This document shows, in pieces, positions 32,632-64,000 of a stretch of 64,000 nt of DNA. Origin of the DNA: Pseudomonadota bacterium (GTDB lineage: Bacteria > Pseudomonadota > Alphaproteobacteria > UBA8366). The notes under the pieces were generated by a model, which was not told the origin of the DNA, searched no databases, and saw only the letters and a list, made by a program, of their open reading frames with translations. Location of the stretch: positions 121,767 to 185,766 of the forward strand of contig JAYZAS010000004.1 of assembly GCA_036339585.1 (NCBI GenBank). Reading direction: 5' to 3'. A program made the translations under genes and the position numbers. The stretch's first letter is position 1. Every line of letters begins with the position of its first letter.

Positions 32632-34019
32632 AGATAACGCTCCTTTGCTGCTGCTAGCGCTTCGCGCACACGCTGCGGCGCTGTGCCACCAAAACTTGTG
32701 CGGCTCGCTGCAGAAGCCTCAACACTCAACACAGAGAATACAGCATCGTTGATACGCTTTTCTACTTTTTGCATCTCGGGTAGCGATAACTCAGCTAATT
32801 CACAGCCTTTTGACTCTGCATTTCTCACCAGTACACCCGTCACATGGTGAGCATCACGAAATGGTAAATCTAATTCCCTTACTAGCCAGTCAGCTAGGTC
32901 TGTAGCCGTTGGGTAACCCTTTTCTAATGCCGCCATCATTGCTTCTTTATTAATTTTCATGTCTTCTAACATTCCAGTCAAGGCCGCAATTACCAATGTT
33001 AAAGAGTCTGTCGCGTCAAAAACCGGCTCTTTGTCTTCCTGCAAATCCTTAGCATAAGCAAGTGGTAAACCTTTTATGACTACCAAAAGAGCTTGTAATG
33101 ACCCTAAAATGCGACCGGTTTTACCACGCGCCAGCTCAGCAGCATCAGGATTACGTTTTTGAGGCATAATTGATGACCCTGTGCTAAACGAGTCGCTTAG
33201 CTCCACAAATCCGAATTGCGGCGATGCCCATAGCACAATCTCCTCGGCAAAGCGTGAGAGATTTACAGCTGTGATTGCAGCGACACTTAGGAACTCAGCA
33301 GCAAAGTCGCGGGCCGATACTGCATCCAGCGAATTAGGCATAGGTCGGTCAAAACCAAGCAACAAAGCGGTCGCGTTCCGGTCTACTGGGAACGAGGTAC
33401 CAGCAAGAGCTGCACTGCCGAGTGGACATTCATTATGCCTTTTGCGGCAATCGGTTAATCGAGAACGATCCCTGCCTAACATCTCTACGTAGGCTAACAT
33501 GTGGTGTCCAAATGTAATTGGTTGGGCAGGCTGAAGATGTGTCAGGCCCGGAAGAAGCGTATCAAAGTGACTTTCTCCTAGCTCAATCAAAGCAGCCTGC
33601 AAGTCACGTAACTGTATATCAAGCTGGTCAATCGTGTCTCTTACCCATAATCGAAAGTCAGTTGCTACTTGGTCATTTCGGCTACGCGCAGTGTGGAGCC
33701 TCCCAGCCGCATCACCTATTAATTCTTTTAACCGGGATTCGATATTTAAATGTATATCCTCGAATTCTAGTTGAAATTGAAATTTACCTGTTTCAATTTC
33801 AATCAATATTTGATCAAGACCGTTTAAAATTTTAGAACCATCATCGCCACCAATGATACCCTGGTCTAACAACATTTTCGCATGCGCTTTTGAACACGCA
33901 ATATCTTGCTCAAAAAGACGCTGGTCGAACTCGATGGAAGCATTTATCTGTTCCATAATGTCAGCGGGGCCTGCGGTGAACCGTCCACCCCACATTTTAC
34001 TCTTTTTCATAAGGGGCAC
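32628..34019 (-). CDS. argH: argininosuccinate lyase
   Basis: 463 aa with '[15 protein letters not shown]', 'TARSRNDQV' and '[11 protein letters not shown]'. Confidence 0.95.
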
Positions 34020-50520: not shown

Positions 50521-52857
50521 TCAACCTTGGGCCCGCTTTGCTGATGTGATGGCTCGCCATATAACTTCCGATGTCATGGGCATATCAAGATGATTGACGC
50601 CTAGCGGTGCAAGAGCATTTATCACCGCATTCGCAACACATGGCAATGCACCTACCGTACCCGCCTCACCAGCCCCCTTAATGCCAGTTGGATTAGTCTT
50701 GCAAGGAACGGGATTGGATCCAACGGCAATTGAACTAATGTCATCCGCTCTAGGCATACAATAGTCCATAAAACTTCCGGAAATTAGCTGTCCTTCGTTA
50801 TCATAGAAAATATTTTCCATAAGCACCTGCCCAAGACCTTGTGCCACGCCACCATGTATTTGGCCCTTCAACAACAGAGGATTAACAACAACGCCAACAT
50901 CATCGACGACTGAATATCTCTGTATGTCAACACGCCCGGTATCCTGATCTATCTCTAATTCGCATACATGCGTACCATTTGGAAACGTCTCAGCCTCCGG
51001 GAGATGGGAGTACATTTCGTCTAGCCCGATTTCCACATCATGAGGAATTCGGTTTGGCGAAAAAGAGGCCCGTGCTACCTCCATTATATTCATCGCCTTA
51101 TCAGTCCCAGCAACCTTGAAGCTACCATCAGAGAATTCAATGTCGTCCTCAGCAGCCTCAAGATTATGGGCGGCAATTTTTTTGGCTTTTTCTATGATCT
51201 TACCGGATGCGCCAAAAATTGCTGCCCCGCCAAGTTCTGCTGACCGAGACCCTCCCGTTCCCTCACCCATGGAAACTTGGTCCGTATCGCCCTCTATCAT
51301 CCGAATCCTTTCAACGGGAATTCCCAACCTATCCGACAGTATCTGCTTAAAACACGTGTCGTGACCCTGACCATGACTGATGGTTCCCATAAGAAGCAGC
51401 ACCGAACCTGCTTTAGTAAAGCGAATCTCGGCGTGTTCAAAGCGCCGCCTTCCTCCAGCTTGTTCTATTGTATTTGAAATCCCGATACCACGCAGCATGC
51501 CTACTTTTGCCGCCTCCTCGCGACGAGCTTCAAATCCCTCGTAATCTGCAAGTTTGAGAGCCATATCAAGACTCTTCTCAAAGTCACCCGAATCATATTT
51601 GAAGGTGAGCGCAGTCTGAAACGGGAGTGCATCCTTAGGTATGAGATTAAGCCGGCGCAGCTCGGCTGGATCAATCTCCATTTTATGTGCTGCAATATCA
51701 ATAAGTCTTTCCATTATATATGCCGCTTCGGGTCGACCCGCCCCACGGTAAGGGGCAGTGCTGCTTGTATTTGTGAGAACCGCATCAACGTGCACATACA
51801 TTGCCTCCGTGGTGTACGTTCCAGCCATCGTGCCGATATTTCCAAGCGGAGGGTTAGGCCCCCGTGAGGCGACGTAGGCGCCAAGATTAGCAATAGTTTT
51901 ACATTTCACCCCAAGAAATTTACCATCTTTAGTCAATGCCAGGGCTGCATCACTTACGTTGTCACGAGCATGCGTATCGCTGATAAATGACTCTGAACGT
52001 GGTGCGTACCATTTTACAGGCCTATCCAATAGTTTTGCGGCCCAAAGCACCAATACATATTCTGGATATGTGCCGCCTTTCATACCAAAGCTTCCACCTA
52101 TATCATCGGAAATAATACGAAAGTTATATTCCGGCTCACAGAATACATTTTCGGCCAAATCAGCACGAATATTATGTGGCTGCTGCAGACCAGTATGGAG
52201 AATATAACGGCTTCCATGCCTATCAAATTCACCAATACAACCGCGATTTTCCATAGAGTTGGTTGATACCCTATTTATCACAAATTTCTGTTGGACAATA
52301 ACATCCGCTCTATTAAATGCAGTTAATGTTGCATCTTCATCACCTACATCGTGACAAAAGGCTATATTGTCAGGACATTCTTCCCAAACTGGAATTGAAT
52401 TTGGACCAACCGCAGCCGATGTTCCAACCATAGCCGGCAGTACCTCATACTCAATCTCTATTAATTCAGCCGCATCCTTTGCTTGATCCAAGGTCTCTGC
52501 GACAATGAAAGCAATTTGGTCACCCACACATCGAATTCTATCGGTTACCAGCGCTGGACGCGGTGGACGAAATATTGGCTTACCATCAGGGCGTCTTGGT
52601 GTGCCTACATCAGTAACAACACCGTTTAATCCCGATTTGACAAAATCTTCACCAGTAAGAATTAACAACACACCCGGCGCGGCAGCAGCGTGTTCTGTTT
52701 TGATGTTTCTAATGCGTGCATGCGCCACCGTGGCACGCAAGATATATCCATGTACCATACGGTTAATGCGAATATCGTCCAAATAACGGCCAACGCCTTT
52801 CAAAAGCCGCGGATCCTCAGTCCGCGGAACAGATTGCCCTATGGCGTATCGAACCAT
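50521..52857 (-). CDS. xanthine dehydrogenase/aldehyde oxidase/CoxL-family molybdopterin-binding large subunit
   Basis: 778 aa with the N-terminal 'GQSVPRTEDPRLLKGVGRYLDD', then 'APYRGAGRPEAAYIMERLID' and 'GGSFG'. Confidence 0.9.
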   Translation of the reverse strand: MVRYAIGQSVPRTEDPRLLKGVGRYLDDIRINRMVHGYILRATVAHARIRNIKTEHAAAAPGVLLILTGEDFVKSGLNGVVTDVGTPRRPDGKPIFRPPRPALVTDRIRCVGDQIAFIVAETLDQAKDAAELIEIEYEVLPAMVGTSAAVGPNSIPVWEECPDNIAFCHDVGDEDATLTAFNRADVIVQQKFVINRVSTNSMENRGCIGEFDRHGSRYILHTGLQQPHNIRADLAENVFCEPEYNFRIISDDIGGSFGMKGGTYPEYVLVLWAAKLLDRPVKWYAPRSESFISDTHARDNVSDAALALTKDGKFLGVKCKTIANLGAYVASRGPNPPLGNIGTMAGTYTTEAMYVHVDAVLTNTSSTAPYRGAGRPEAAYIMERLIDIAAHKMEIDPAELRRLNLIPKDALPFQTALTFKYDSGDFEKSLDMALKLADYEGFEARREEAAKVGMLRGIGISNTIEQAGGRRRFEHAEIRFTKAGSVLLLMGTISHGQGHDTCFKQILSDRLGIPVERIRMIEGDTDQVSMGEGTGGSRSAELGGAAIFGASGKIIEKAKKIAAHNLEAAEDDIEFSDGSFKVAGTDKAMNIMEVARASFSPNRIPHDVEIGLDEMYSHLPEAETFPNGTHVCELEIDQDTGRVDIQRYSVVDDVGVVVNPLLLKGQIHGGVAQGLGQVLMENIFYDNEGQLISGSFMDYCMPRADDISSIAVGSNPVPCKTNPTGIKGAGEAGTVGALPCVANAVINALAPLGVNHLDMPMTSEVIWRAITSAKRAQG

Positions 52858-52970
52858 ATACCCTCCAAACTAGTGCAACACCTTTAATATTAAGCGGCAA
52901 TAAAGGGATACGCACCTCTTAGTCCCTTGCCATTCCAAAAGAATCACAGAACACTAACAATGGGTAGTTT

Positions 52971-53867
52971 TTAAAAGTCATACAACTTAGCAGGGTTATC
53001 TACGAAAATCATTTTTCTAATCGCTTCGTCTGGAACCCAGTCCACCATTGCATCCAAACAGGATGCCTCGTCTGGCTTATCATTTATGGGAAATTGTGGA
53101 TGGGGCCAGTTCGCGGCCCACACTAGCCGATCGGGCCGCACCTCCAAAAGTGCCCTAACATAAACGGCAACTTGCTCATAATCAGGGAAATCCCCGTTTT
53201 TGCCGTGGTGACCATCGGTGCACATGTAATAAGGTGCCGATATCTTAATCCAGCAGCGGCCAGTTTCGAAAAATTTGAGTAAGGCATTAAAACCATTAGT
53301 GTCTGCCGATTGGCCTGCACCTATCCGCCCGATGTGATCTATTACACAATCTACCGGTAATTTTTGAAATATACTGACCGCTTCTTCTAACCATACCCCG
53401 TCGTCTTGGAACTGTATATGCCAGCCCAACGGAGCAACCTTTTCAGCCATTGGAATAGCATCTTCAAGCGCGAAATCATCCGCCATCAAAAAAAACCGCA
53501 AACCACGAATTCCTTGTGTGTGGAGTTTCCATAGTTCTTTCTCTGATATGTCTTTCCTGGTAACACAAACGCCACGAGTTGTTTCCAGGCCCCGCGCGGC
53601 TATCGATTTCAGTGTACATCGATTGTCCGATCCATACGCTGATGGCTGAACGATTACGGCGCGATCGAAACCAAGCCTATCTAACATCTCGTTATAAGCA
53701 TTTAGTGAACATATAGGCTCGCCTAAACGCCCCGGCCAAAGAGGATATTTTTCTAGCGGCCCATAAATGTGTGAGTGAGTTTCACATGAGTTTGGAGGGA
53801 GTTTTAATTGGGGTTTCCTGCCAGAATCTGTGAGAGTAAGCTGATGCTTGTCATTCAATGTATTCAT
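52971..53867 (-). CDS. amidohydrolase_2-family metal-dependent hydrolase (LigI/ACMSD-like)
   Basis: Start at MNTLNDKH. Metal motif 'CETHSHIYGP' and a later 'VIDHIG' and 'WPHP'. About 298 aa. Confidence 0.78.
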   Translation of the reverse strand: MNTLNDKHQLTLTDSGRKPQLKLPPNSCETHSHIYGPLEKYPLWPGRLGEPICSLNAYNEMLDRLGFDRAVIVQPSAYGSDNRCTLKSIAARGLETTRGVCVTRKDISEKELWKLHTQGIRGLRFFLMADDFALEDAIPMAEKVAPLGWHIQFQDDGVWLEEAVSIFQKLPVDCVIDHIGRIGAGQSADTNGFNALLKFFETGRCWIKISAPYYMCTDGHHGKNGDFPDYEQVAVYVRALLEVRPDRLVWAANWPHPQFPINDKPDEASCLDAMVDWVPDEAIRKMIFVDNPAKLYDF

Positions 53868-54153
53868 GCTTTTATAGCCTTGCGACAATAATATTAACAA
53901 AGGCATAACATGTATTGGCTTACAGAGTCAGCGACTCGGGGTGTTTTTACATCAATTTATTGCCTAATCTACATTCTCAATAACGTGCCCAAGACCCTAA
54001 AAAACTTATTCGCAATCCTAAAATATCATTTCAAAAAAATGGGTTATAACAAGTTTCTTCGGTATTGACTGTTGCTCCAAATAATCTCTGCTTGAAATTT
54101 TTTGAGAAAAAAACTACCACAAGTAGTGTAAAGGACGTGTTTGGTGACAATAT

Positions 54154-54450
54154 ATGCTGTTTAAGACCGACAAAAAAGATCTTCGCGTGGCTCCTGGCAA
54201 TAGGTATCGAAAATCGGATGATACTGAATTGGTGTGGATAATCAAAAATGTTTACACACCGAATGGGTTTGAAACGCACGCACGAGCATATCCAACCAAT
54301 GATCCAAGTGATGTGAGATTATACGCAGCCTCGGTTTTTGGTGATGTTAGGTTTTTTGATCCTATTCACGTACAAGTCGAAGATGGCAAGGCATCCGAGT
54401 CCAAAGCGCCAGCATTTGCCGAGCCCGCAACTCTAAAACCTGCGGAATAA
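54154..54450 (+). CDS. hypothetical small protein
   Basis: 98-aa ORF in an AT-rich intergenic stretch. No recognisable family and no strong SD. Confidence 0.3.
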   Translation: MLFKTDKKDLRVAPGNRYRKSDDTELVWIIKNVYTPNGFETHARAYPTNDPSDVRLYAASVFGDVRFFDPIHVQVEDGKASESKAPAFAEPATLKPAE

Positions 54451-54831
54451 GAAACTCACAAAAAAACTTTTGAAATCGTTTAGCAAAAAAATTTTGGTGC
54501 CACTGCCGTTTAATTATGGATCTCTAAATCCTTTTCCTGCGTTAGACGGAAAAAACTTTAGCTGCCAAGACCCAACAATTGCCTTATTTGTCTACCACAT
54601 ACTTGAGACCCAAAAGTTTGTGACGTTTTGAAAGCATCTGATTGCTTTTTGAAGGATGGAAGAGTAATCCCTTGTGTTCATTTTCTCATGCCTATGGGCT
54701 TGGTTTGACAAACCTAGAATGAGAAAGCCGATTATCAGTTTAAAACGAGTATGCTCCGAGTTCGATATAAATGTCCTTGTGGATGAGCAAGAATTATCAG
54801 GAACACCAGTTACTGCGGGGCCTTAAGAGAA

Positions 54832-56148
54832 ATGCCGCATAAGCCAAGTGAATTAGCCTCTATGAGGACACGTGATTTTAACAGAGTCACGCCTAACATG
54901 TTATTTGCTAACAGAAATTACCTAAAGCTGTGGTTTAACGGCGGCACGGCAACAACCATGCGCTGGCTTGAATTGCTTGCAATAGGTTTTTTTACTCAGA
55001 AAGCCACTGAATCTGAATTTCTCGTAGCGATGATGTTTTTTCTTCGTTGGATACCAATGGTCCTTCTAGGAAGCTTCGTTGGAGTACTTGCCGAGAGATT
55101 TGACCGCCGCAAGCTATTCCTCTACGGCATTTTTATGCTTTGGATGGTGTCAGCTACACTTTTTGTTTTAACCTGGTTTGATGCGCTAGAGATCTGGCAC
55201 GTAGCTCTTGGGACAACCATTAATGGCTGTCTAAACGTTATCGAATTTCCAATTCGCCGAACTCTTATCGGAGATGTTGTAAAATCTAAAGAACTTGTAC
55301 CTGCCATGGCGCTTGATTCTGTTACTAACCAGTGTACGCGAATGGCCGGACCATTTCTTGGAGTGATTATCGAAGGATATCTCGGGATAATTGGGGTTTA
55401 TTTCTTAGGTTTGATTTTGCATGCCATCGGTTTTGTACTATCGTACTCTCTTAAACCCCCTGTGCAGAAACCAAGAATAGAGAAAAAACGGGTGCTAACT
55501 GAGATAAGCGATGGGTTCAAACATATCAAAACACGTGACATGCTTACTGCGACATTAGTGGTCACGGCGATAATGAACGCTTTTGCCATGTCATTTTCAT
55601 CACAGATACCAGCAATAGCAGTTGAAGAACTAAATTTAGATACAAACCAATCCAGCTTTCTTGCAGGAGCCGAAGGTTTGGGTGCATTTATTGGTGCTTT
55701 AATAATAGCAACACGCCAGTTTACAACTCCCGGTCGTCTTCTTCTCTTTGGCTCAATCATATTCGAGATTTTCCTTATCGCATTTTCCCATGCACCCGAA
55801 CTAATTTTTGCAATACCCCTATTGGTGTTGAGCGGGATTGGCCATTCCGGTTTCTCCGCCAGCCAATCCGCCCTAATGATTGCATATTCTGATCCGACCA
55901 TGCGATCCCGTACAATGGGGGTACTTGCTGTATGTATCGGCACCCAGCCATTCGGCATTCTTCTCCTGGGAGTTATTGCAGAATTTTATGGGGCCCCTGT
56001 TGCAATTGCGATCTCGGCAAGTTTGGGAACAACGTTACTCATTTGGGCAGGCTATAAATGGCCTGCAATCTGGAGTGGTAGTTTTTACGAACCACCAAAT
56101 GATCTAAGCCATCAGAAGCAAGACAATGATCGCAGTAACAACAAGTGA
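54832..56148 (+). CDS. MFS transporter
   Basis: 438 aa with about 12 hydrophobic segments and an MFS_3-like N-terminus ('FRNRNY'-type 'FANRNYLKLW'). Confidence 0.85.
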   Translation: MPHKPSELASMRTRDFNRVTPNMLFANRNYLKLWFNGGTATTMRWLELLAIGFFTQKATESEFLVAMMFFLRWIPMVLLGSFVGVLAERFDRRKLFLYGIFMLWMVSATLFVLTWFDALEIWHVALGTTINGCLNVIEFPIRRTLIGDVVKSKELVPAMALDSVTNQCTRMAGPFLGVIIEGYLGIIGVYFLGLILHAIGFVLSYSLKPPVQKPRIEKKRVLTEISDGFKHIKTRDMLTATLVVTAIMNAFAMSFSSQIPAIAVEELNLDTNQSSFLAGAEGLGAFIGALIIATRQFTTPGRLLLFGSIIFEIFLIAFSHAPELIFAIPLLVLSGIGHSGFSASQSALMIAYSDPTMRSRTMGVLAVCIGTQPFGILLLGVIAEFYGAPVAIAISASLGTTLLIWAGYKWPAIWSGSFYEPPNDLSHQKQDNDRSNNK

Positions 56149-57015
56149 CATGCCTATAAATTCATGGACCCGTGCCCGTTCTTTAAATACCAAGTAAGAA
56201 ACCAATATTGAGAGAATTACTTCAAGCTGACTGACCGTTTTAACGTATGCCACACGCTCAAGTGTCATAGCACTAAACCAGCCAACAGAGCCGAGGGCAC
56301 TGAAAATACCTACCATCAAACTAGGTTTCCATAGCCTAATAATATTTTGAATCTCAGACTTATCCTGGAGGATAAGATAAAACACGATGAGAAACACCTC
56401 AATCGACAGCACTATCACGAGCACAAAACCTGCTTTCAACAAGAAACCACCCTCTGTTAACTCAAGTGCAGCTGCACGAATAAACACGGAAGCCGCCGCG
56501 ATCCCAAAGCCGCTGAGAACCCCGTAAACTGCAGCTCTAGTAAAGAGACCTGTTAAAATGCTATTGAGATCGAATTTCCCACCAACGGCCGATAACATCA
56601 CGACACCTGTCATGCTAATGACTATCGCACTATACCCGGCAAGGGATATTTGATCACCAACCAACAATAATCCCAACAGCGCTGACTGGATAATTTCAGT
56701 TTTTGTGTAAGTGATGCCGACGGCAAAATTACGCTGCCTTAACAAAAGAATGAGAAAAAGTGTACCCAAAATTTGGGTTACTGCAGCACAAAAACAATAG
56801 CCCCAAAAAACTAATGTGGTGGAGGGAATGAGAGTCCCACCGGCAAAATATTTTAAGATACCATAATATAAAAACCCAAATGGTAAGCCGAACACAAATC
56901 GAACGCAGACCACGCCGATCGAGCTCATGCTGGTAGTAAGATGCTTCTGCAGACTATGCCGGACGACCTGCATGACCACAGCAAAAAGGGTGATCCAGAC
57001 CCAGAGCTCCAACAT
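56104..57015 (-). CDS. EamA/DMT-family transporter
   Basis: 303 aa with about 10 TM segments in a two-repeat architecture. Last gene of the Rieske/NHase string. Confidence 0.82.
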   Translation of the reverse strand: MLELWVWITLFAVVMQVVRHSLQKHLTTSMSSIGVVCVRFVFGLPFGFLYYGILKYFAGGTLIPSTTLVFWGYCFCAAVTQILGTLFLILLLRQRNFAVGITYTKTEIIQSALLGLLLVGDQISLAGYSAIVISMTGVVMLSAVGGKFDLNSILTGLFTRAAVYGVLSGFGIAAASVFIRAAALELTEGGFLLKAGFVLVIVLSIEVFLIVFYLILQDKSEIQNIIRLWKPSLMVGIFSALGSVGWFSAMTLERVAYVKTVSQLEVILSILVSYLVFKERARVHEFIGMSLVVTAIIVLLLMA

Positions 57016-57057
57016 CAGAAAACCCTATTTTATGCTACGAGGTGACTCAAGAACTTC

Positions 57058-57375
57058 TTACACCTTACGTTGACGAGCGCGCACATCTTCAAGCTTTGTC
57101 GTAAGTTCTTCGTCAGAAAATATCCCTTTCTCAATCAGTAACGCCTGCAAACTCCAGAGCTTACGTTCATAATAGTTAAGCTTTTTATAATCTTCACCGA
57201 GAGCCTCAATAGCGCGTCTACCCTCGTGCGTGTTAGTTAAATTCGCCCCGAGTGGACGCAGCAATTGGCCCATCGCATCGACGCGCCACTCCCAAAAAGC
57301 CAATTCGTGGTCGGCTGTATCAATGGGGCCACCGGCCTCACCTCCCATATCGGCTGGATTTTTCTTCTTTCTCAT
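57058..57375 (-). CDS. nitrile hydratase beta-subunit N-terminal-half-like protein (or beta-like accessory/chaperone)
   Basis: 105 aa. 'ADMGGEAGGPID...LAFWEWRVDAM...RRAIEALGEDYKKLNYYERKLWSLQALLIEKGIFSDEEL' aligns by eye to residues ~1-100 of NHase beta. Its start overlaps the alpha stop (TAATG). Confidence 0.68.
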   Translation of the reverse strand: MRKKKNPADMGGEAGGPIDTADHELAFWEWRVDAMGQLLRPLGANLTNTHEGRRAIEALGEDYKKLNYYERKLWSLQALLIEKGIFSDEELTTKLEDVRARQRKV

Positions 57376-57995
57376 TACGCCACTCTCACAGTAGTAACAC
57401 CAATCATCGAGTCTCGAGTAACAAGCTTCGAAAGCTGTTTTTCAGTCATGTTTTTGGTCTGATCGGGGCGCATGGGTAACACTAAATAACGGAGATCTGC
57501 TGTACTATCATGTACTCTCAACTCAATTTCTTCTGGTATATCAGTTCCAAATTCCTTCAGAACAGTCCTCGGCTCGCGAATTAACCTACGTCGGTAATTA
57601 GAGCTTTTATACCATGCAGGTGGTAAACCAAGGACTGGTCTTGGGTAACAAGAGCAGAGTGTACAGACTACAACATTATGAACCTCAGGTGTATTCTCAA
57701 TGACCTTCAGTTCTAAATCGCCCATCCCAACGTCATATTGAGCGACCGCTTTAGTGCCGTCTTCCAAAAGTAGCTTCTTGAAATCATTATCGCACCAGGC
57801 ACGTGCAATGATTTTACTACCTAAAGCGGGCGTCTTCTGCTCCCAATCCTCAACTTGTTTTCGAATTTGGTCTGCGGTCAAAATGCCCTTTTCAATTAAA
57901 AGTTCACGGACTGCTATTTCACGAACTTGCGTTTCTGTTATATCTGGCCCTTCAGTATCTTTCTGAAATTCGGACTGATCGTGTTCATGAGGCAT
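57375..57995 (-). CDS. nitrile hydratase alpha subunit, Co-type metal centre
   Basis: 206 aa with 'VVVCTLCSCYPRPVLGLPPAWYKSSNYRRRLIREPRTVLKEFG' and 'LVTRDSMIGV'. The CTLCSC claw-setting motif is intact. Confidence 0.9.
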   Translation of the reverse strand: MPHEHDQSEFQKDTEGPDITETQVREIAVRELLIEKGILTADQIRKQVEDWEQKTPALGSKIIARAWCDNDFKKLLLEDGTKAVAQYDVGMGDLELKVIENTPEVHNVVVCTLCSCYPRPVLGLPPAWYKSSNYRRRLIREPRTVLKEFGTDIPEEIELRVHDSTADLRYLVLPMRPDQTKNMTEKQLSKLVTRDSMIGVTTVRVA

Positions 57996-58053
57996 AAAAA
58001 CTTTCTCCGGCCTGTTCTAAAAATTTCAAAAACTATGCTATTTGCCTGTTTTC

Positions 58054-58437
58054 TTAATCGATCGTCGACACTACTCTTGAGATTTCGTCCACTACTTTTA
58101 CTCCGGATCGAGTGTACACTATTTTGTCCCCGTCTAAAATGACCCCGGCGGGATAAAGTTTCTGGCCCTCACATGGGCCGTCAATACACATCCCGTCTTC
58201 AATCCGAAAATATGCGGCATGTGAATTGCAAAATAAAAGCCCTGGCTTACCCCTCGTCATAAAGTTCCCAACTTCCCCATCTAATCGAGAACCTATGTGC
58301 GGGCAAAGGTTAATGTAAGCCCTTATATCGCTACCAATACGGATTATTATCAACCGCTGAGCTACAGTCCCACCCTCAACGCTAAATCCTTTTGCTTCGC
58401 CATCACAAAGATCAGTAAGTCGGCACAGCTCAATCAT
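58054..58437 (-). CDS. Rieske [2Fe-2S] domain protein
   Basis: 127 aa with 'CPHIG' and 'CNSHAAYF', i.e. CxH...CxxH, plus 'GPC'. Confidence 0.85.
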   Translation of the reverse strand: MIELCRLTDLCDGEAKGFSVEGGTVAQRLIIIRIGSDIRAYINLCPHIGSRLDGEVGNFMTRGKPGLLFCNSHAAYFRIEDGMCIDGPCEGQKLYPAGVILDGDKIVYTRSGVKVVDEISRVVSTID

Positions 58438-58612
58438 TGGGGCTACCCCTCTCGGCGCATCATCTATATATCTTGCAACTAAAAAAGGCTCGAATCCCGG
58501 AATATTTTCTCAGTCTGTTTTTTGTCTATCGCTTCTGGCGGAGAACTTATCATCACGTTCAATCAATATTATATGAGTCTTCTCCATAACATCTGCGAAA
58601 TCCGCTACTGTA

Positions 58613-59605
58613 TCAATATTCAGCAAACATTCGTCGCAATTCTGATGTTTCTTTTGATACAGTAAGTGCCATCATAGTCAGTATCCGCGCCTTCTGCGGA
58701 TTGAGATTGTCTGCACTTATCCAACCCTGATTGAAATATTCGGAACGGTCCAATACACGACCGGAACCGGCTCGAGAAGAGAATATAACGGGTATGCCTT
58801 TGGCATTAGCTTCTTGCAGTGCCCGCTTTTGGTCAGGGGCCGGAGTCCCAGGAGGCATGGTTGCCATCACAATTGCTTCTGCACCCCCTGCAATTACCGC
58901 CGCAACTTGATCGCCTGATGCACCAGCATACGAATAAATTATGTCGACACGCGGCAGGCTATCTCGCCCAGCCACGTTGAATTCTGTGTCTGGCGCATGT
59001 CTTCGAGTGGGTTTTCGGTAAACAGAAATACGGTCATCTGGGTCCGCATGGCCGAGCATTCCCATGTCCGGAGTGCGAAAGGTCTGAAGCCTGTAGGTCG
59101 AAGTCTTGGTAACTTCACGTGCGCACTGGATCTCATTATTAAGAATAGTCAGTACTCCCATGCCCTTACATTCGGGCGCGCTAGCGACTTGAAGGCCATT
59201 CCTAAGATTGGCACCTCCATCAGTGGCAAACCCCGACGAGGGCCTCTGAGCTCCTATAACCACAATCGTGTTCTGAGATTTGTGAGCCAAGTGGAGAAAA
59301 TAAGCGGTTTCTTCTAAACTGGCTGTGCCATGAGTTATTACAATACCATCGTGGACCTTTGCGACATCTTCAACCTTAGCCAATAACTCAAGCCATGTCT
59401 CAGGCCCAATGGCAGAACTGGAGATCCGACCAAAGTCGACAGGTGTTACGTCGGCTACTGAAGCGGCCTCCGGAAATAAATCTAATAATTCCCTTGGCCC
59501 ATATCTCTCTCCGTGGGCCACGTAGTCAAAGGTGTCAAGGCTGTTTTTACCCTTTGATCCTATCGTGCCCCCGGTAGTTACAAGAGCAATTTTTGGCTTA
59601 GTCAT
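58613..59605 (-). CDS. L-asparaginase/glutaminase type II family protein (variant active-site motif)
   Basis: Start at MTKPKIALV behind GGAGG. Has 'LVTTGGTIGS', 'ITHGTASLEETAYFL' (canonical HGTDT) and 'REVTKTST'. Confidence 0.82.
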   Translation of the reverse strand: MTKPKIALVTTGGTIGSKGKNSLDTFDYVAHGERYGPRELLDLFPEAASVADVTPVDFGRISSSAIGPETWLELLAKVEDVAKVHDGIVITHGTASLEETAYFLHLAHKSQNTIVVIGAQRPSSGFATDGGANLRNGLQVASAPECKGMGVLTILNNEIQCAREVTKTSTYRLQTFRTPDMGMLGHADPDDRISVYRKPTRRHAPDTEFNVAGRDSLPRVDIIYSYAGASGDQVAAVIAGGAEAIVMATMPPGTPAPDQKRALQEANAKGIPVIFSSRAGSGRVLDRSEYFNQGWISADNLNPQKARILTMMALTVSKETSELRRMFAEY

Positions 59606-61130
59606 TTCGGGCACCTCCAATCTTGCAGAATGTTTTTGTTTCATTAATCAGTCTTTCTCGCGCCCTCGCTACACGACGAGAAATAGCGCCAACTTTCTTT
59701 TTATCCTCGAGCAATTCGCGATTCCTGATTGTTATCATATCACGCATCCTTTTAGAACTTGGGCCGCCCATAAGTCCACGCTGTTCAATGTTTCTCTCAG
59801 GATTGAGCGCCTCGCTAACCAGTTTCTGAGACAAGTTGAGCCTCTTACCAAAAAGCTCCAGCGCTGCGCTGTCAAGGTCAGAGGATTTGATGTCAGTAGC
59901 AATTCCACCTTTGCCCACAGTATTACGTACAACGGTACCAACTACATTGTGCGCCATGCGGAATGAAAAACCAGTCTCACGAACTATCACATCCGATAAC
60001 TCCGTTGCAGTGCCGAAGCCAATTTCCGCCTGTTTTTTCATAACGTCTTTATTAACGACAATAGCAGAAAGTACTTCATTTATTAGCAACAATACACTAC
60101 CTGCATGTTTGCACGCATCAAGTGCCGGCTCATTGAGAGCAGTTACGCCGTCAGCCACGTCACTAAGCGAGGTGTTCTTGACACAGGCCGAGGCTGAGGT
60201 GAATGCGCCGTTCACAATCCCAGCCACTGCTTTTATGTGTTCAAGGGCAGCCGGATTTTTCTTCTGCGGCATAATAGATGAAACCGCAGAGTGTTCATCG
60301 CCAGTCTCTATAAAACCGTATTCAAAGGTGTTCCATGCCTGCAAATCAAAAGCGAGACGGGAAATGTTTGTCATAAAAATTGCCAACGCTGCCGTCGACT
60401 CCATCGCATCATCACGATTTGAAACTGCATCATAAGCGATTTCCATCGGCTGAGGAAAACCAAGCGCTTTAGCCACAAGCTTACGGTTTAGCGGAAACGC
60501 TGTCGTAGTCAAAGCACCAGCACCCAGTGGGCATTGATCAGTATTTTGAAGAGAGGCGAAAATACGGGCAAAATCACGTTGCAACAGATCCGCCAAGGTC
60601 AACAGGTAATAACCCAGCGTAATTGGCTGGGCGTGTTGGGAATGCGTATAACCTGGCATCACGGTTGCGATATGTCGTTGTGAAAGCCTCAAAACTGTTT
60701 TTCGCAGTTCAGCTAATCGAGAGAGAATCTCAAGCAATTCAGTCCGCAGTGCCATGCGCCAGGCTGTGGTGTGCATATCGTTGCGGCTGCGCCCGGTATG
60801 CAATTTTCCTCCCACCTCTGGACCCAACCTCGACACTATGTAGCGCTCGGTGTAGGAGTATAGGCCCTCCAATTTATAATCAATGCTAAGTACTCTGTGG
60901 CCCTCAGTTTGTATCTTCAGTATTAATTTTAAAATTTTTTTTATGTCTCGGCTTGGAACAATTCCCTGTTTTACCAACATTAACCCGTGGGCCATATGTA
61001 TCTGCATTTCTGCATCAAAATTATATTCAAGGTCTTTTGCTAATTTTTTGCTGAAATAAGTCTCAACAAAAATTTCGGATGGCGCACTTTTTAGACGCTC
61101 TCGCAGATTAACTTTTGATTTTCGAACCAT
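59598..61130 (-). CDS. argininosuccinate-lyase-like fumarate-lyase superfamily protein (second ArgH paralog)
   Basis: 510 aa with 'TGRSRNDM', 'PGYTHSQHAQP' and 'VSSIMPQKKNPAALEH'. Overlaps the asparaginase-like start by 8 nt. Confidence 0.85.
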   Translation of the reverse strand: MVRKSKVNLRERLKSAPSEIFVETYFSKKLAKDLEYNFDAEMQIHMAHGLMLVKQGIVPSRDIKKILKLILKIQTEGHRVLSIDYKLEGLYSYTERYIVSRLGPEVGGKLHTGRSRNDMHTTAWRMALRTELLEILSRLAELRKTVLRLSQRHIATVMPGYTHSQHAQPITLGYYLLTLADLLQRDFARIFASLQNTDQCPLGAGALTTTAFPLNRKLVAKALGFPQPMEIAYDAVSNRDDAMESTAALAIFMTNISRLAFDLQAWNTFEYGFIETGDEHSAVSSIMPQKKNPAALEHIKAVAGIVNGAFTSASACVKNTSLSDVADGVTALNEPALDACKHAGSVLLLINEVLSAIVVNKDVMKKQAEIGFGTATELSDVIVRETGFSFRMAHNVVGTVVRNTVGKGGIATDIKSSDLDSAALELFGKRLNLSQKLVSEALNPERNIEQRGLMGGPSSKRMRDMITIRNRELLEDKKKVGAISRRVARARERLINETKTFCKIGGARND

Positions 61131-61239
61131 ATGACCCTCCTTTATTTTGTCGTCAAGTTTAAGCCAACCACACTCATATGGCTATCGCCTCGACTGCCCA
61201 AGATGTTACAAATCTCCATAGAATTAAGGAGGATTTACA

Positions 61240-62349
61240 ATGAAGATTGATAAAGTTGAAGCTATAGCCATAGAAGTGCCATTACCCAAACCTTTTGCTG
61301 GAGCCACCTATACCGTACCAACCCGTAATACCATCGTAACTCGCATTTATACTGATGATGGTTTAGTGAGTGAGGTGTACAATGGTGATAATCGGAAGTG
61401 TGGTCCAGAAGTGGCAAGAATAGTCATGGAGGATATAGCTCCCTTAATTCTCGGCCTTAACCCCATCTGTCATGAAAAGGTCTGGGAACATGCCTTTAAG
61501 ATTACTACTCCCCAAGGTGACCGAAAATATTTGATGGAGGCAATTGCTTGCGTGGATACCGCAGTTTGGGATTTGAAAGGCAAAGCACTTGGCTGCAGCG
61601 TCAACAAGTTGATGGGAGGATACCGCCAACGGATACCCATCACCGCAACCGGGGGCTACTACCAAGAAGGACGGACGGTTGAAAGTTTCGGGGAGGAGAT
61701 GCAATGGCTCATAAGTGTGGGAATGGGTGGATGTAAGTTTAAAGTTGGGGGCTTAAGCCCGGAAGAAGATTTTGAACGCGTCGCCTCAGCTCGCGAAGGA
61801 GCCGGGCCAAATTTTATTCTCGGCTGTGACGCCAACCAAGGCTGGACTATAGATGAAGCAACCCGTTTTGCCGAACTAGTAGAGCCTTTAGATATTACGT
61901 GGTTTGAAGAACCTGTACGATGGCAGGATGATGTTCGTTCTATGGCAGAACTTCGAAAGCGTATCTCCATTCCGATCAATGCCGGCCAAAGTGAAATGAC
62001 AAGTTGGGGTGTGCGGCGTTTGCTTGATGCGGGTGCCGTAGATATTGTCAACTTTGATATGTCGCATGGCGGAGGACCTACAGAATGGCTTCGCGCAGCA
62101 ACTATGTGCGGATCAGTTGGAGTAAAGCTTTTGCATCATGAGGAAACCCACCTAGCAGTTCATGCGTTAGCGGCAGTCCCGCATGGTCTATACACAGATT
62201 GTTTTCCAGACCCTGAACGCGATCCAATTTGGGATAAAATGATCGTGAACCGGCCTAATATTTGTGATGGCTGGATAGATGTGCCTCAAGGGCCGGGTTT
62301 TAACATTGAACTTGATTGGGAAGCCGTGAAAAAATATCGCACCAATTAA
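61240..62349 (+). CDS. enolase-superfamily enzyme (mandelate racemase/muconate lactonizing family)
   Basis: 369 aa with 'CKFKVGG' (KxK), 'GCDANQGW', 'WFEEPV' and 'NFDMSHGGG'. Confidence 0.88.
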   Translation: MKIDKVEAIAIEVPLPKPFAGATYTVPTRNTIVTRIYTDDGLVSEVYNGDNRKCGPEVARIVMEDIAPLILGLNPICHEKVWEHAFKITTPQGDRKYLMEAIACVDTAVWDLKGKALGCSVNKLMGGYRQRIPITATGGYYQEGRTVESFGEEMQWLISVGMGGCKFKVGGLSPEEDFERVASAREGAGPNFILGCDANQGWTIDEATRFAELVEPLDITWFEEPVRWQDDVRSMAELRKRISIPINAGQSEMTSWGVRRLLDAGAVDIVNFDMSHGGGPTEWLRAATMCGSVGVKLLHHEETHLAVHALAAVPHGLYTDCFPDPERDPIWDKMIVNRPNICDGWIDVPQGPGFNIELDWEAVKKYRTN

Positions 62350-62381
62350 TCCCCTGAGTAGTTACTGTTGCTCTATTATCC

Positions 62382-63160
62382 ATGGTTTTACCCCATTCGC
62401 CAACTTAAACACAGTAGATATATCCCTGCTAATCGGCATAAATCTATTTGGCTTCACGGTTCGTGGCGCTTTCGGGTTTGGCGCAGGGCTTCCCAATGTT
62501 TTACTAATGAGTTTGATAGTTCCACCCCACCAGGCGGTAGTCTTACACAGCACGGCAACGTTATTCTCACACCTCCAACTTTTTCCACAGGGAGTGCGAG
62601 TTGGTGACTGGCAAATCTCTAAGCACCTTATTTTTGGGTTCTTCTTTGCTACTATCGCAGGTGTTTTGCTATTTTCCTCTTTAAATGAGAACCAACTAAA
62701 AGTTTCTATAGGCCTACTCTTATTAATTATAATGCTTGCTAATTTGCAAAACCCTTGATCGACAAAGCGTCCATATTAATCTCAAGAGACTAAGCGTGCT
62801 AATTTTCTACGGTGCATTTTCTGGGTTTAGTGGAGCAATCGCAGGCGGTGGAACGGGTTATTTTCTCGCTGCATATCTCAAATGGGCGACTGAAAGCTCA
62901 ATAAGTTTTCGCGGAACAAACCTTCTAATGGAAATTTTTTACGGCTTATGGAGATTTTTTCTATTAGTGATCGCCGGTTGGGTTGGATGGCATACCTTGC
63001 TCAATGCGTTGATATTGGTGCCGCGGTCCTACTAGGCGGCATGCTCGGGCGTTTGTTGTCTCAACGACTTAAAACCGCTACCTTCTACCGTGGCGTTCAA
63101 TTAATATTGATATTTGCTACAATCTTATTGATGACCAAAAGATTAAAGTTGTTCGAGTAG
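62382..63160 (+). pseudogene. TauE/SafE (DUF81) family anion/sulfite exporter, disrupted by frameshifts
   Basis: Consecutive TauE-like segments sit in alternating frames. ATG 62382 gives MVLPHSPT*. Then FTPFANLNTVDISLLIGINLFGFTVRGAFGFGAGLPNVLLM...LANLQNP* runs to stop 62756-58. Then ...LSVLIFYGAFSGFSGAIAGGGTGYFLAAYL...GWVGWHTLLNAL... runs to 63035. Finally ...VDIGAAVLLGGMLGRLLSQRL... runs to 63160. The total span of about 780 nt fits a roughly 250-aa TauE. Confidence 0.65.
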
Positions 63161-63239
63161 CTTAACGTCACAGTGCCTTGCCTTTAGGCTTTATCAATGA
63201 TGCGACGGACGCACTCATCTGGAGAGGGGGGTTAACTAA

Positions 63240-64000
63240 ATGGATTCTCAAATAAACCCTGAAGACCTTAAGAAAATGCTGCATGATGGCGGTGAATTAG
63301 CATTACTTGATGTGCGCGAAGATGGGGAGTTTGGCGAAGGTCATATACTCTATGCTAATCCGTGTGCATATTCACATTTAGAGGCGCGCGTCACCAAACG
63401 AGTCCCACGTAAAACTACTCGTATTGTATTAGTTGATGGGGGAAACGCCATTGCAGAGAAGGCTTCTACACGTCTCTCAGAGGTCGGTTATTCGAACATA
63501 ATGATCCTGAATGGAGGCATCTCCAGTTGGGCTGAAGTTGGATACACTCTATTTAAGGGAGTCAATGTGCCATGCAAGGCGTTTGGAGAGATGGTTGAAC
63601 ATTACACCAAGACACCTCACATCTCACCCCAAGAGTTGAAAGACATTCAAGAGGACGGCAAATCCCACGTTGTCCTAGATGGCCGAACCCCGAAAGAATT
63701 CAATAGGATGAGCATCCCAGGAGGAATTAGCGTGCCAAACGCTGAACTAATCTACCGCGTTCATGATTTAGCTCCAGACCCAGAAACCACAATTGTAATA
63801 AATTGTGCTGGACGCACACGCTCAATTATTGGGGCACAGACACTTATTAACGCTGGAATACCTAATCGAGTTGTTGCACTTAAGGGAGGGACCATGGGAT
63901 GGACCCTGGCGGGTTTCGATCTTGAAAATGGTGCAACTCGGAAATACGACAGATTATCAGAGGAAGGCAAGAAAACTGCCAAGCAACGTGCTGATAAAAT
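63240..64000 (+). CDS. multi-rhodanese-domain sulfurtransferase (5' part; continues past the window)
   Basis: Not in the track because it is open at the edge. The ATG at 63240 follows GGAGAGGGGGG. Translation is MDSQINPEDLKKMLHDGGELALLDVREDGEFGEGHI...; the second domain has the active-site loop 'INCAGRTRS'. Confidence 0.8.
   Translation, partial: MDSQINPEDLKKMLHDGGELALLDVREDGEFGEGHILYANPCAYSHLEARVTKRVPRKTTRIVLVDGGNAIAEKASTRLSEVGYSNIMILNGGISSWAEVGYTLFKGVNVPCKAFGEMVEHYTKTPHISPQELKDIQEDGKSHVVLDGRTPKEFNRMSIPGGISVPNAELIYRVHDLAPDPETTIVINCAGRTRSIIGAQTLINAGIPNRVVALKGGTMGWTLAGFDLENGATRKYDRLSEEGKKTAKQRADK

Follow-up and report, generated by a model that had tools for sequence, protein, structure and literature searches.

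A half-length beta subunit at a marine alphaproteobacterial nitrile hydratase locus and its probable unlinked C-terminal half

The closest described relatives of the locus reported here are cobalt enzymes of the nitrile hydratase (NHase) family in which the beta subunit is split. ScNHase of Streptomyces canus CGMCC 13662 consists of a Co-type alpha subunit (AnhA) and separate N- and C-terminal halves of beta (AnhD and AnhE; betaN and betaC below). Its alpha subunit together with AnhD but without AnhE gave 0.21% of full activity, and alpha alone gave none (PMC7329996). The thiocyanate hydrolase of Thiobacillus thioparus (scnB-scnA-scnC; PDB 2DD4) is likewise an NHase-family cobalt enzyme with a split beta. 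We analysed a 64,000-nucleotide (nt) stretch of an alphaproteobacterial genome (GenBank assembly GCA_036339585.1, contig JAYZAS010000004.1, positions 121,767 to 185,766), referred to as the window, in which an NHase alpha gene and a gene for only half of beta lie in a minus-strand string divergent from a plus-strand string with a decayed TauE/SafE permease and a rhodanese protein. A first-pass annotation had tentatively joined both strings in one module that recovers nitrogen and sulfur from nitriles or cyanide. We favour, with a probability of about 0.6, two neighbouring units instead of one module, the NHase being a three-piece enzyme with betaC supplied in trans. The missing beta half most likely comes from a gene about 90 kb away, which would be a leftover of an older operon.

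The window belongs to a genome of 2.79 Mb in 25 contigs (G000; the window is G000:C4:121767-185766). Its closest public relatives are marine metagenome-assembled genomes labelled Rhodospirillaceae bacterium, and the genomes of its genus, g1, are small (2.3-3.1 Mb). Comparisons were made among the g1 genomes G000, G085, G086 and G087 and the genomes G066 and G067 of the sister genus g4; G087 is 97% and G067 100% complete. G086 branches deeply in g1, its cluster proteins being only about 76% identical to those of the window, and its cluster contig is short, carrying alpha, betaN, EamA and MFS_3 only. For co-occurrence, the sample was widened to 300 other alphaproteobacterial genomes and metagenome contigs. 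Genes were identified by listing open reading frames and by Pfam and NCBIfam scans.

The window alpha scored 252.2 bits on the NHase alpha model TIGR01323, barely over the cut-off of 249.85, and its best solved matches were Co-NHase alphas. The beta protein matched the N-terminal domain model alone, which bears out the first-pass statement that beta is only half-length at this locus. It retained the DMGG start, the Arg of EGRRAIE and Tyr68/Tyr69, and R53/R54 and Y68/Y69 were invariant in 11 betaN sequences. In every betaN of this group Trp72 was replaced by Lys. Y68 and W72 are named as pocket residues in PMC7193024, and the replacement hints at a polar or anionic nitrile as the substrate. The first-pass annotation had also drawn an analogy to thiocyanate hydrolase, which failed at the family cut-off: alpha reached 219.6 bits on the thiocyanate hydrolase gamma model TIGR03887, under the required 291.45. 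Matches of the three pieces to Co-NHase and thiocyanate hydrolase chains were 233 vs 181, 26.6 vs 22.8 and 57 vs 31 bits, and the gene order differs from that of T. thioparus as well.

Other identities were considered for these two genes. An accessory (P14K/NhlE-like) role for betaN was rejected, as the protein has the DMGG start, the Arg block and the Tyr pair, and the real accessory protein of the same genome is without them. In the alpha tree, the window alpha branched off deeply and on its own inside the split-beta clade; neither a recent duplication of the genes at the remote locus described below nor membership of the betaC-alpha-betaN type was supported by this position. A second split-beta NHase of the window genome, with the order betaN-betaC-alpha, lies on the minus strand at G000:C1:335895-337161 (L012:8890-10198), and its alpha sits on a very long branch of the tree (end branch about 1.5).

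Like ScNHase, the window locus has a VCTLCSC alpha, a betaN encoded separately and tightly coupled to alpha, and no activator gene. It differs from ScNHase in order (anhD-anhE-anhA there, Rieske-alpha-betaN here), in the Rieske ferredoxin gene upstream and in the Lys at pocket position 72. The C-half gene of ScNHase lies in the operon, whereas here the separate betaC is unlinked, about 90 kb off, and would come from a different ancestral NHase operon; only alpha and betaN adjoin, so that the three adjacent genes of the ScNHase type are not found. The canonical Co-NHase operon on contig C21 of the same genome has like alpha chemistry and a hydrolase for the amide product nearby. However, C21 encodes a full-length beta of 221 aa, a 98-aa accessory protein and an amidase-signature enzyme, all three of which are absent from the window locus, where a beta half and an asparaginase-like enzyme are found instead.

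A census of the window genome gave 3 alpha, 4 betaN-like and 3 betaC matches. The three alphas belong to the canonical alpha/beta/accessory/amidase locus (C21), the betaN-betaC-alpha locus (C1) and the window, and the last has only betaN beside it. A lone betaC gene lies on the same contig as the window betaN, about 90 kb from it (about 91 kb in G087), between a GST gene and a lipoprotein-like gene and near polA and PEPCK. At the same locus the g4 arrangement is PolA-GST-GST-betaN-betaC-alpha-lipoprotein-PEPCK. In all four g1 genomes, G086 included, betaN and alpha are cleanly gone from the polA-GST locus and betaC is intact. The order betaN-betaC-alpha was the usual one in the genomes of the order and in the metagenome contigs examined, several of which adjoin polA/GST, and the g1 state with a lone betaC is therefore derived.

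The lone betaC retained all family-invariant residues, including the arginine block GHxRxPxYxRG. Pairwise ratios of nonsynonymous to synonymous substitution were 0.12-0.35, and the frame of 94 codons was open even where synonymous sites were saturated. According to a census with profile hidden Markov models, alpha, betaN and betaC are each present exactly once in G087 and in G086; alpha and betaN are those of the cluster, and betaC is the lone polA-locus gene. G067 has three alphas but two betaC-bearing genes, and the alpha/betaN pair of its cluster is without a betaC of its own. Two further candidates for missing pieces were rejected. The 222-aa gene after the lone betaC is not a diverged alpha; it is lipoprotein-like, has no Pfam match and also follows alpha in g4. 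Nor does the gap preceding the Rieske gene contain a relic of betaC: in g4 it holds a VOC/glyoxalase gene and in g1 nothing recognisable.

In a complex model of alpha, betaN and the lone betaC, with betaC as the partner, the score was 0.93 against 0.40 for the best of three controls. Of 80 solved complexes, 58 attained the mark applied to such models, as did 2 of 110 mismatched pairs. Contact agreement in these runs was at least 93% and partner pLDDT (predicted local distance difference test) at least 91, and the modelled interface took in the metal-site segment of alpha and the arginine block of betaC. Because NHase complexes have already been solved, the pass indicates likeness to solved NHases and is not proof that this copy of betaC binds.

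An enzyme of alpha and betaN that works without betaC, the lone betaC being retained for another reason, is hardly likely. Such an assembly could be an AnhD2A-like complex for cobalt loading or chaperoning, or the Rieske protein could occupy the position of betaC. AnhD2A complexes do exist and act as swapping chaperones (PMC7329996), and the slot just upstream of alpha that the Rieske gene holds here is held by betaC in a minority of soil-metagenome loci (betaC-alpha-betaN). However, AnhDA is almost catalytically dead (0.21%), the conserved arginine block of betaC cannot come from a Rieske fold, and no other Rieske homologue inspected adjoins an NHase. The 1:1:1 gene census in G087 and G086 and the purifying selection on the lone betaC also fit a shared enzyme.

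The three-piece enzyme would be of the AnhD/AnhE/AnhA type, its SH3-like beta-C half being supplied in trans by the 94-aa gene, the putative sole survivor of an ancestral betaN-betaC-alpha operon at the polA-GST locus. A history in three steps can be proposed. An alpha-betaN pair without betaC would have become dependent on the betaC of the polA locus; g1 would have shed the redundant alpha and betaN of that locus; and the shared betaC would have been retained. Once assembled, the NHase would hydrate a nitrile, probably a polar or anionic one, to the amide.

This NHase would be flagged as broken or incomplete by automatic annotation. Comparison of the genomes points to a functional enzyme drawn from two operons, one of which lost betaC and the other of which later lost alpha and betaN. 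It would be a natural example, in small marine genomes, of subunit sharing followed by reciprocal gene loss, and before an enzyme is called incomplete for want of a subunit, the whole genome should be searched. What is solidly new here is the proposed three-piece NHase with an unlinked beta-C half from an ancestral operon; the enzyme type itself is known. The conserved Rieske gene and the change of Trp72 to Lys single out the group as one in which unusual marine nitrile chemistry may be sought; natural nitrile substrates in the ocean are, to our knowledge, poorly known.

The minus-strand unit would be a lineage-specific catabolic string comprising the ArgH paralog, the asparaginase-like enzyme, the Rieske protein, Co-type alpha, betaN and the EamA transporter. 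Its genes are closely packed, and their order was constant in all genomes and contigs of both genera. The ArgH-paralog and asparaginase-like genes overlap by 47 nt, the Rieske gene lies 58 nt upstream of alpha, the alpha stop and betaN start overlap in TAATG, which indicates translational coupling, and 42 nt separate betaN from EamA. EamA was syntenic in every genome and contig with this cluster type. In one metatranscriptome run, a single contig of 214 nt covered the 5' end of EamA (56814-57027); it stops short of betaN and so does not show co-transcription. No RNA family was matched in an Rfam scan of 53900-64000 (E up to 0.1), and a scan with consensus promoter and terminator patterns gave no more sites than shuffled sequence.

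The ArgH-like lyase scored 365 bits on the argininosuccinate lyase model TIGR00838 (cut-off 279.5) and retained the catalytic signatures THSQHA and SSIMPQKKN. A housekeeping argH at 32637-33995 of the window, 26 kb upstream of it, scored 604 bits on the same model, and the gene at the present locus is therefore a paralog. The asparaginase-like enzyme reached 275.3 bits on the type II L-asparaginase (AnsB) model TIGR00520, under the cut-off of 314.3. In its triad HGTAS stands in place of HGTDT, and the nucleophile Thr and the Lys are retained. Asp90 was changed to Ala in 9 of 9 cluster copies and was Ala or Ser in all 11 homologues elsewhere (47-54% identity); HGTA[ST] prevailed in this alphaproteobacterial subfamily (loci L105-L114). 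It is plausible that the asparaginase-like enzyme and the lyase may process the product of the NHase. Two members of the subfamily have unusual settings: L107 is the C-terminal part of an open frame of 822 aa whose N-terminal 490 aa have no Pfam match, and L111 directly precedes queC.

The two halves of the minus-strand string might also be mutually unrelated, the Rieske/alpha/betaN/EamA unit and the ArgH-paralog/asparaginase-like pair being mere neighbours in an island rich in TauD-like, amidohydrolase and Mo-hydroxylase genes. We consider this rather unlikely. In its favour, the gap between the asparaginase-like and Rieske genes is 175 nt in g1 (window 58438-58612) with nothing recognisable inside, and g4 differs in gene content by an extra VOC/glyoxalase gene at this place, which g1 is without. 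Homologues of the pair are also found elsewhere beside hydantoinase, intradiol dioxygenase, beta-lactamase-family, QueC, PrpD and M20 genes. However, all genes lie on a single strand with no terminator-like site above chance between them, and their order has stayed constant despite protein divergence of about 25-35%. To place an amidohydrolase gene immediately before that of an amide-producing enzyme is moreover common logic in NHase operons, and the C21 NHase precedes an amidase.

In the small Rieske protein, the ligands C45-x-H47 and C70-x-x-H73 were invariant in 5 orthologues, and its gene was kept in all loci of this cluster type. The protein falls into a broad family of small Rieske proteins, and its nearest solved relatives are the oxygenase ferredoxins CarAc and T4moC, to which the match was weak. 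It resembles them in its small size and both Cys-His ligand pairs. Unlike in those systems, neither an oxygenase nor a reductase that could be its partner is encoded next to it, and it precedes a non-redox hydratase. No relevant paper on a Rieske gene accompanying an NHase came up in a literature search. Possible explanations are a redox role in cobalt loading, a partnership with another enzyme of the island, or no functional link. Cobalt insertion into ScNHase in vitro requires reducing conditions (PMC7329996), and a role in cobalt loading is suggested only because that maturation depends on dithiothreitol. By analogy, the Rieske protein could be a dedicated redox partner in maturation and the minus-strand string could degrade a carboxylate-bearing marine nitrile through amide, acid and fumarate, which is a long shot. 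An N-substituted beta-cyanoalanine, for example, would then be a candidate nitrile, at similarly long odds.

Whether the genes of both strands travel together had been put forward in the first-pass annotation as a check on the module. The whole block, which begins at a lone CoxL-like gene and takes in the TauD-like genes, was syntenic in g1 (G085, G087), in g4 (G066, G067) and in 7 metagenome contigs from the two lineages, with protein identities of 64-97%. Synteny across two genera reflects common ancestry, not independent recurrence. Outside them the combination did not recur. An NHase neighbour was found at none of 11 other copies of the asparaginase-like gene (10 places in 9 genomes), at neither of two other ArgH-paralog loci and at none of 15 other small-Rieske loci inspected, and no other cluster gene was present on any of 73 other metagenome contigs with a split-beta NHase. 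A CoxL match was likewise absent from all 73. Among the 300 other genomes, the asparaginase-like subfamily (47-54% identity) occurred in 9, in unrelated and mutually different contexts, orthologues of the ArgH paralog in 2, adjoining hydantoinase or intradiol dioxygenase genes, and small Rieske homologues in 91. Since nothing recurs beyond the two genera, the integrated module is without independent support. Both genomes with an ArgH-paralog orthologue also carry the asparaginase-like gene, on other contigs; this is a weak hint at the genome level.

On the plus strand, the first-pass description of the permease as decayed was correct. In an alignment to the intact orthologue of G087, the window TauE had lost its start codon (ATG to ATT) and was short of 2 bases near 62757 and of 1 base near 63022. 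The start loss and the 62757 deletion recurred in independent marine metagenome contigs (runs X1 and X5). At 63022, the contigs of these two independent metagenome studies hold an additional G; the single-base deletion of the window there could reflect strain variation or a fault of assembly. TauE is thus genuinely broken, with two lesions confirmed, not three. The gene is missing from G085 and from metagenome contig L145, whereas G087 has an intact copy and g4 has four copies in tandem. The rhodanese protein has four rhodanese domains in 531 aa, in agreement with its description as multi-rhodanese, and the catalytic Cys loop is present in only one of the four (CAGRTRS, residue 189). Its orthologue in g4 follows the TauD-like genes, which it precedes in the window genome. 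The TauD-like proteins scored 178-186 bits on the taurine dioxygenase model, below the cut-off of 313.

Sulfite is released by TauD-type enzymes, and TauE-type proteins have been linked to its export. The instability of TauE and the shifting of the rhodanese gene among the TauD-like genes place both in the string with the TauD-like, binding-protein and MFS genes. This suggests that the TauE/rhodanese side is better read, at the family level only, as sulfonate and sulfite handling; no tie of these genes to cyanide was seen. The plus-strand unit, with its decaying TauE, fourfold rhodanese protein, three TauD-like enzymes, NMT1-type protein and MFS transporter, would handle sulfite or sulfur derived from sulfonates and would not be functionally tied to the NHase.

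An integrated module, in which the NHase, asparaginase-like and ArgH-like enzymes recover nitrogen from a nitrile, for instance a derivative of beta-cyanoalanine, while rhodanese and TauE take cyanide-derived sulfur within the same regulon, is very unlikely in our estimation. In its favour, the reactions form a chemically coherent sequence, every gene is adjacent and syntenic in two genera, and the Lys at position 72 throughout the group would suit a polar or anionic nitrile. Against this, the combination is confined to those two genera, TauE is deleted, broken, single or fourfold, the rhodanese gene shifts among the TauD-like genes and just one of its product's four domains has the catalytic Cys. 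No cyanide-related gene was seen in the stretch. What was proposed as a nitrogen and sulfur module is not supported on its sulfur side, with TauE unstable and rhodanese changing position. The proposed nitrogen chemistry, in which a nitrile would be converted to the amide and the acid and then cleaved in the manner of fumarate lyases, stays plausible. The cyanide/sulfur module, which would be the more striking claim, is unsupported.

Several points weigh against two separate units with a three-piece NHase. The functions of all genes here are read from sequence and from a model. The window alpha and betaN form a deep separate branch, so we infer their fit with the lone betaC. G000 and G085 have two other betaC-bearing NHase loci, which are possible sources of a partner, and the complex model does not separate a true partner from a close cousin. 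In every genome of the two genera the units lie side by side, so that on synteny alone a functional tie between them may exist. With the TauD-like genes under the taurine dioxygenase cut-off, the sulfonate reading is made at the level of the family.

The features are collected in Table 1. All nine genes of the first-pass inventory were recovered by Pfam scans, and 56104-64000 showed neither a regulator gene nor a mobility gene, as had been noted.

Table 1. Genes of the two putative units, the remote beta-C half and the additional gene of the g4 cluster. Positions are those of the window unless another sequence is named.
Feature	Position	Strand	Basis
ArgH paralog, 510 aa	59598..61130	-	Pfam Lyase_1 and ASL_C2; aspartase/fumarase-superfamily lyase
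Type II asparaginase-like amidohydrolase, 343 aa	58613..59644	-	Pfam Asparaginase N and C domains
Small Rieske [2Fe-2S] ferredoxin-type protein, 127 aa	58054..58437	-	Pfam Rieske; CPH...CNSH ligands
Cobalt-type NHase alpha, 206 aa	57375..57995	-	PF02979, 267 bits; VCTLCSC
NHase beta N-terminal half, 105 aa, AnhD-like	57058..57375	-	PF21006 (NHase_beta_N), sole match
EamA/DMT-family transporter, 303 aa	56104..57015	-	Pfam EamA
Enolase-superfamily (MR/MLE) enzyme	61240..62349	+	Pfam MR_MLE_N and MR_MLE_C
TauE/SafE permease pseudogene	62354..63160 (approx.)	+	Pfam TauE on fragments in three frames
Rhodanese protein, start	63240..64000	+	Continues beyond the window to 531 aa; four rhodanese domains (Pfam)
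Three TauD-like dioxygenases, NMT1-type binding protein, MFS transporter	Past window end, after the rhodanese gene		Pfam
Lone NHase beta C-half, 94 aa	G000:C4:269020-269304 (L011:9020-9304), outside the window	-	PF02211, 76 bits
VOC/glyoxalase-family gene, 131 aa	L055:11472-11867 (genome G067, g4)

The enolase-superfamily gene is divergent from the ArgH paralog, with 109 nt between them, and its product is 90-97% identical between the two genera. It scored under every NCBIfam cut-off, and its top matches were acid-sugar dehydratases. In two related alphaproteobacterial genomes of one family, G194 and G356, an enolase-superfamily gene that is 28% identical to that of the window has a small Rieske homologue (41-43% identity) about 300 nt away (L140:359-1815, L143:1498-2954). 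Elsewhere in the window, a gene for a lone CoxL-type Mo-hydroxylase large subunit and an Amidohydro_2 gene are located at 50521-53906, 3-5 kb from the NHase, and both are syntenic with it in both genera.

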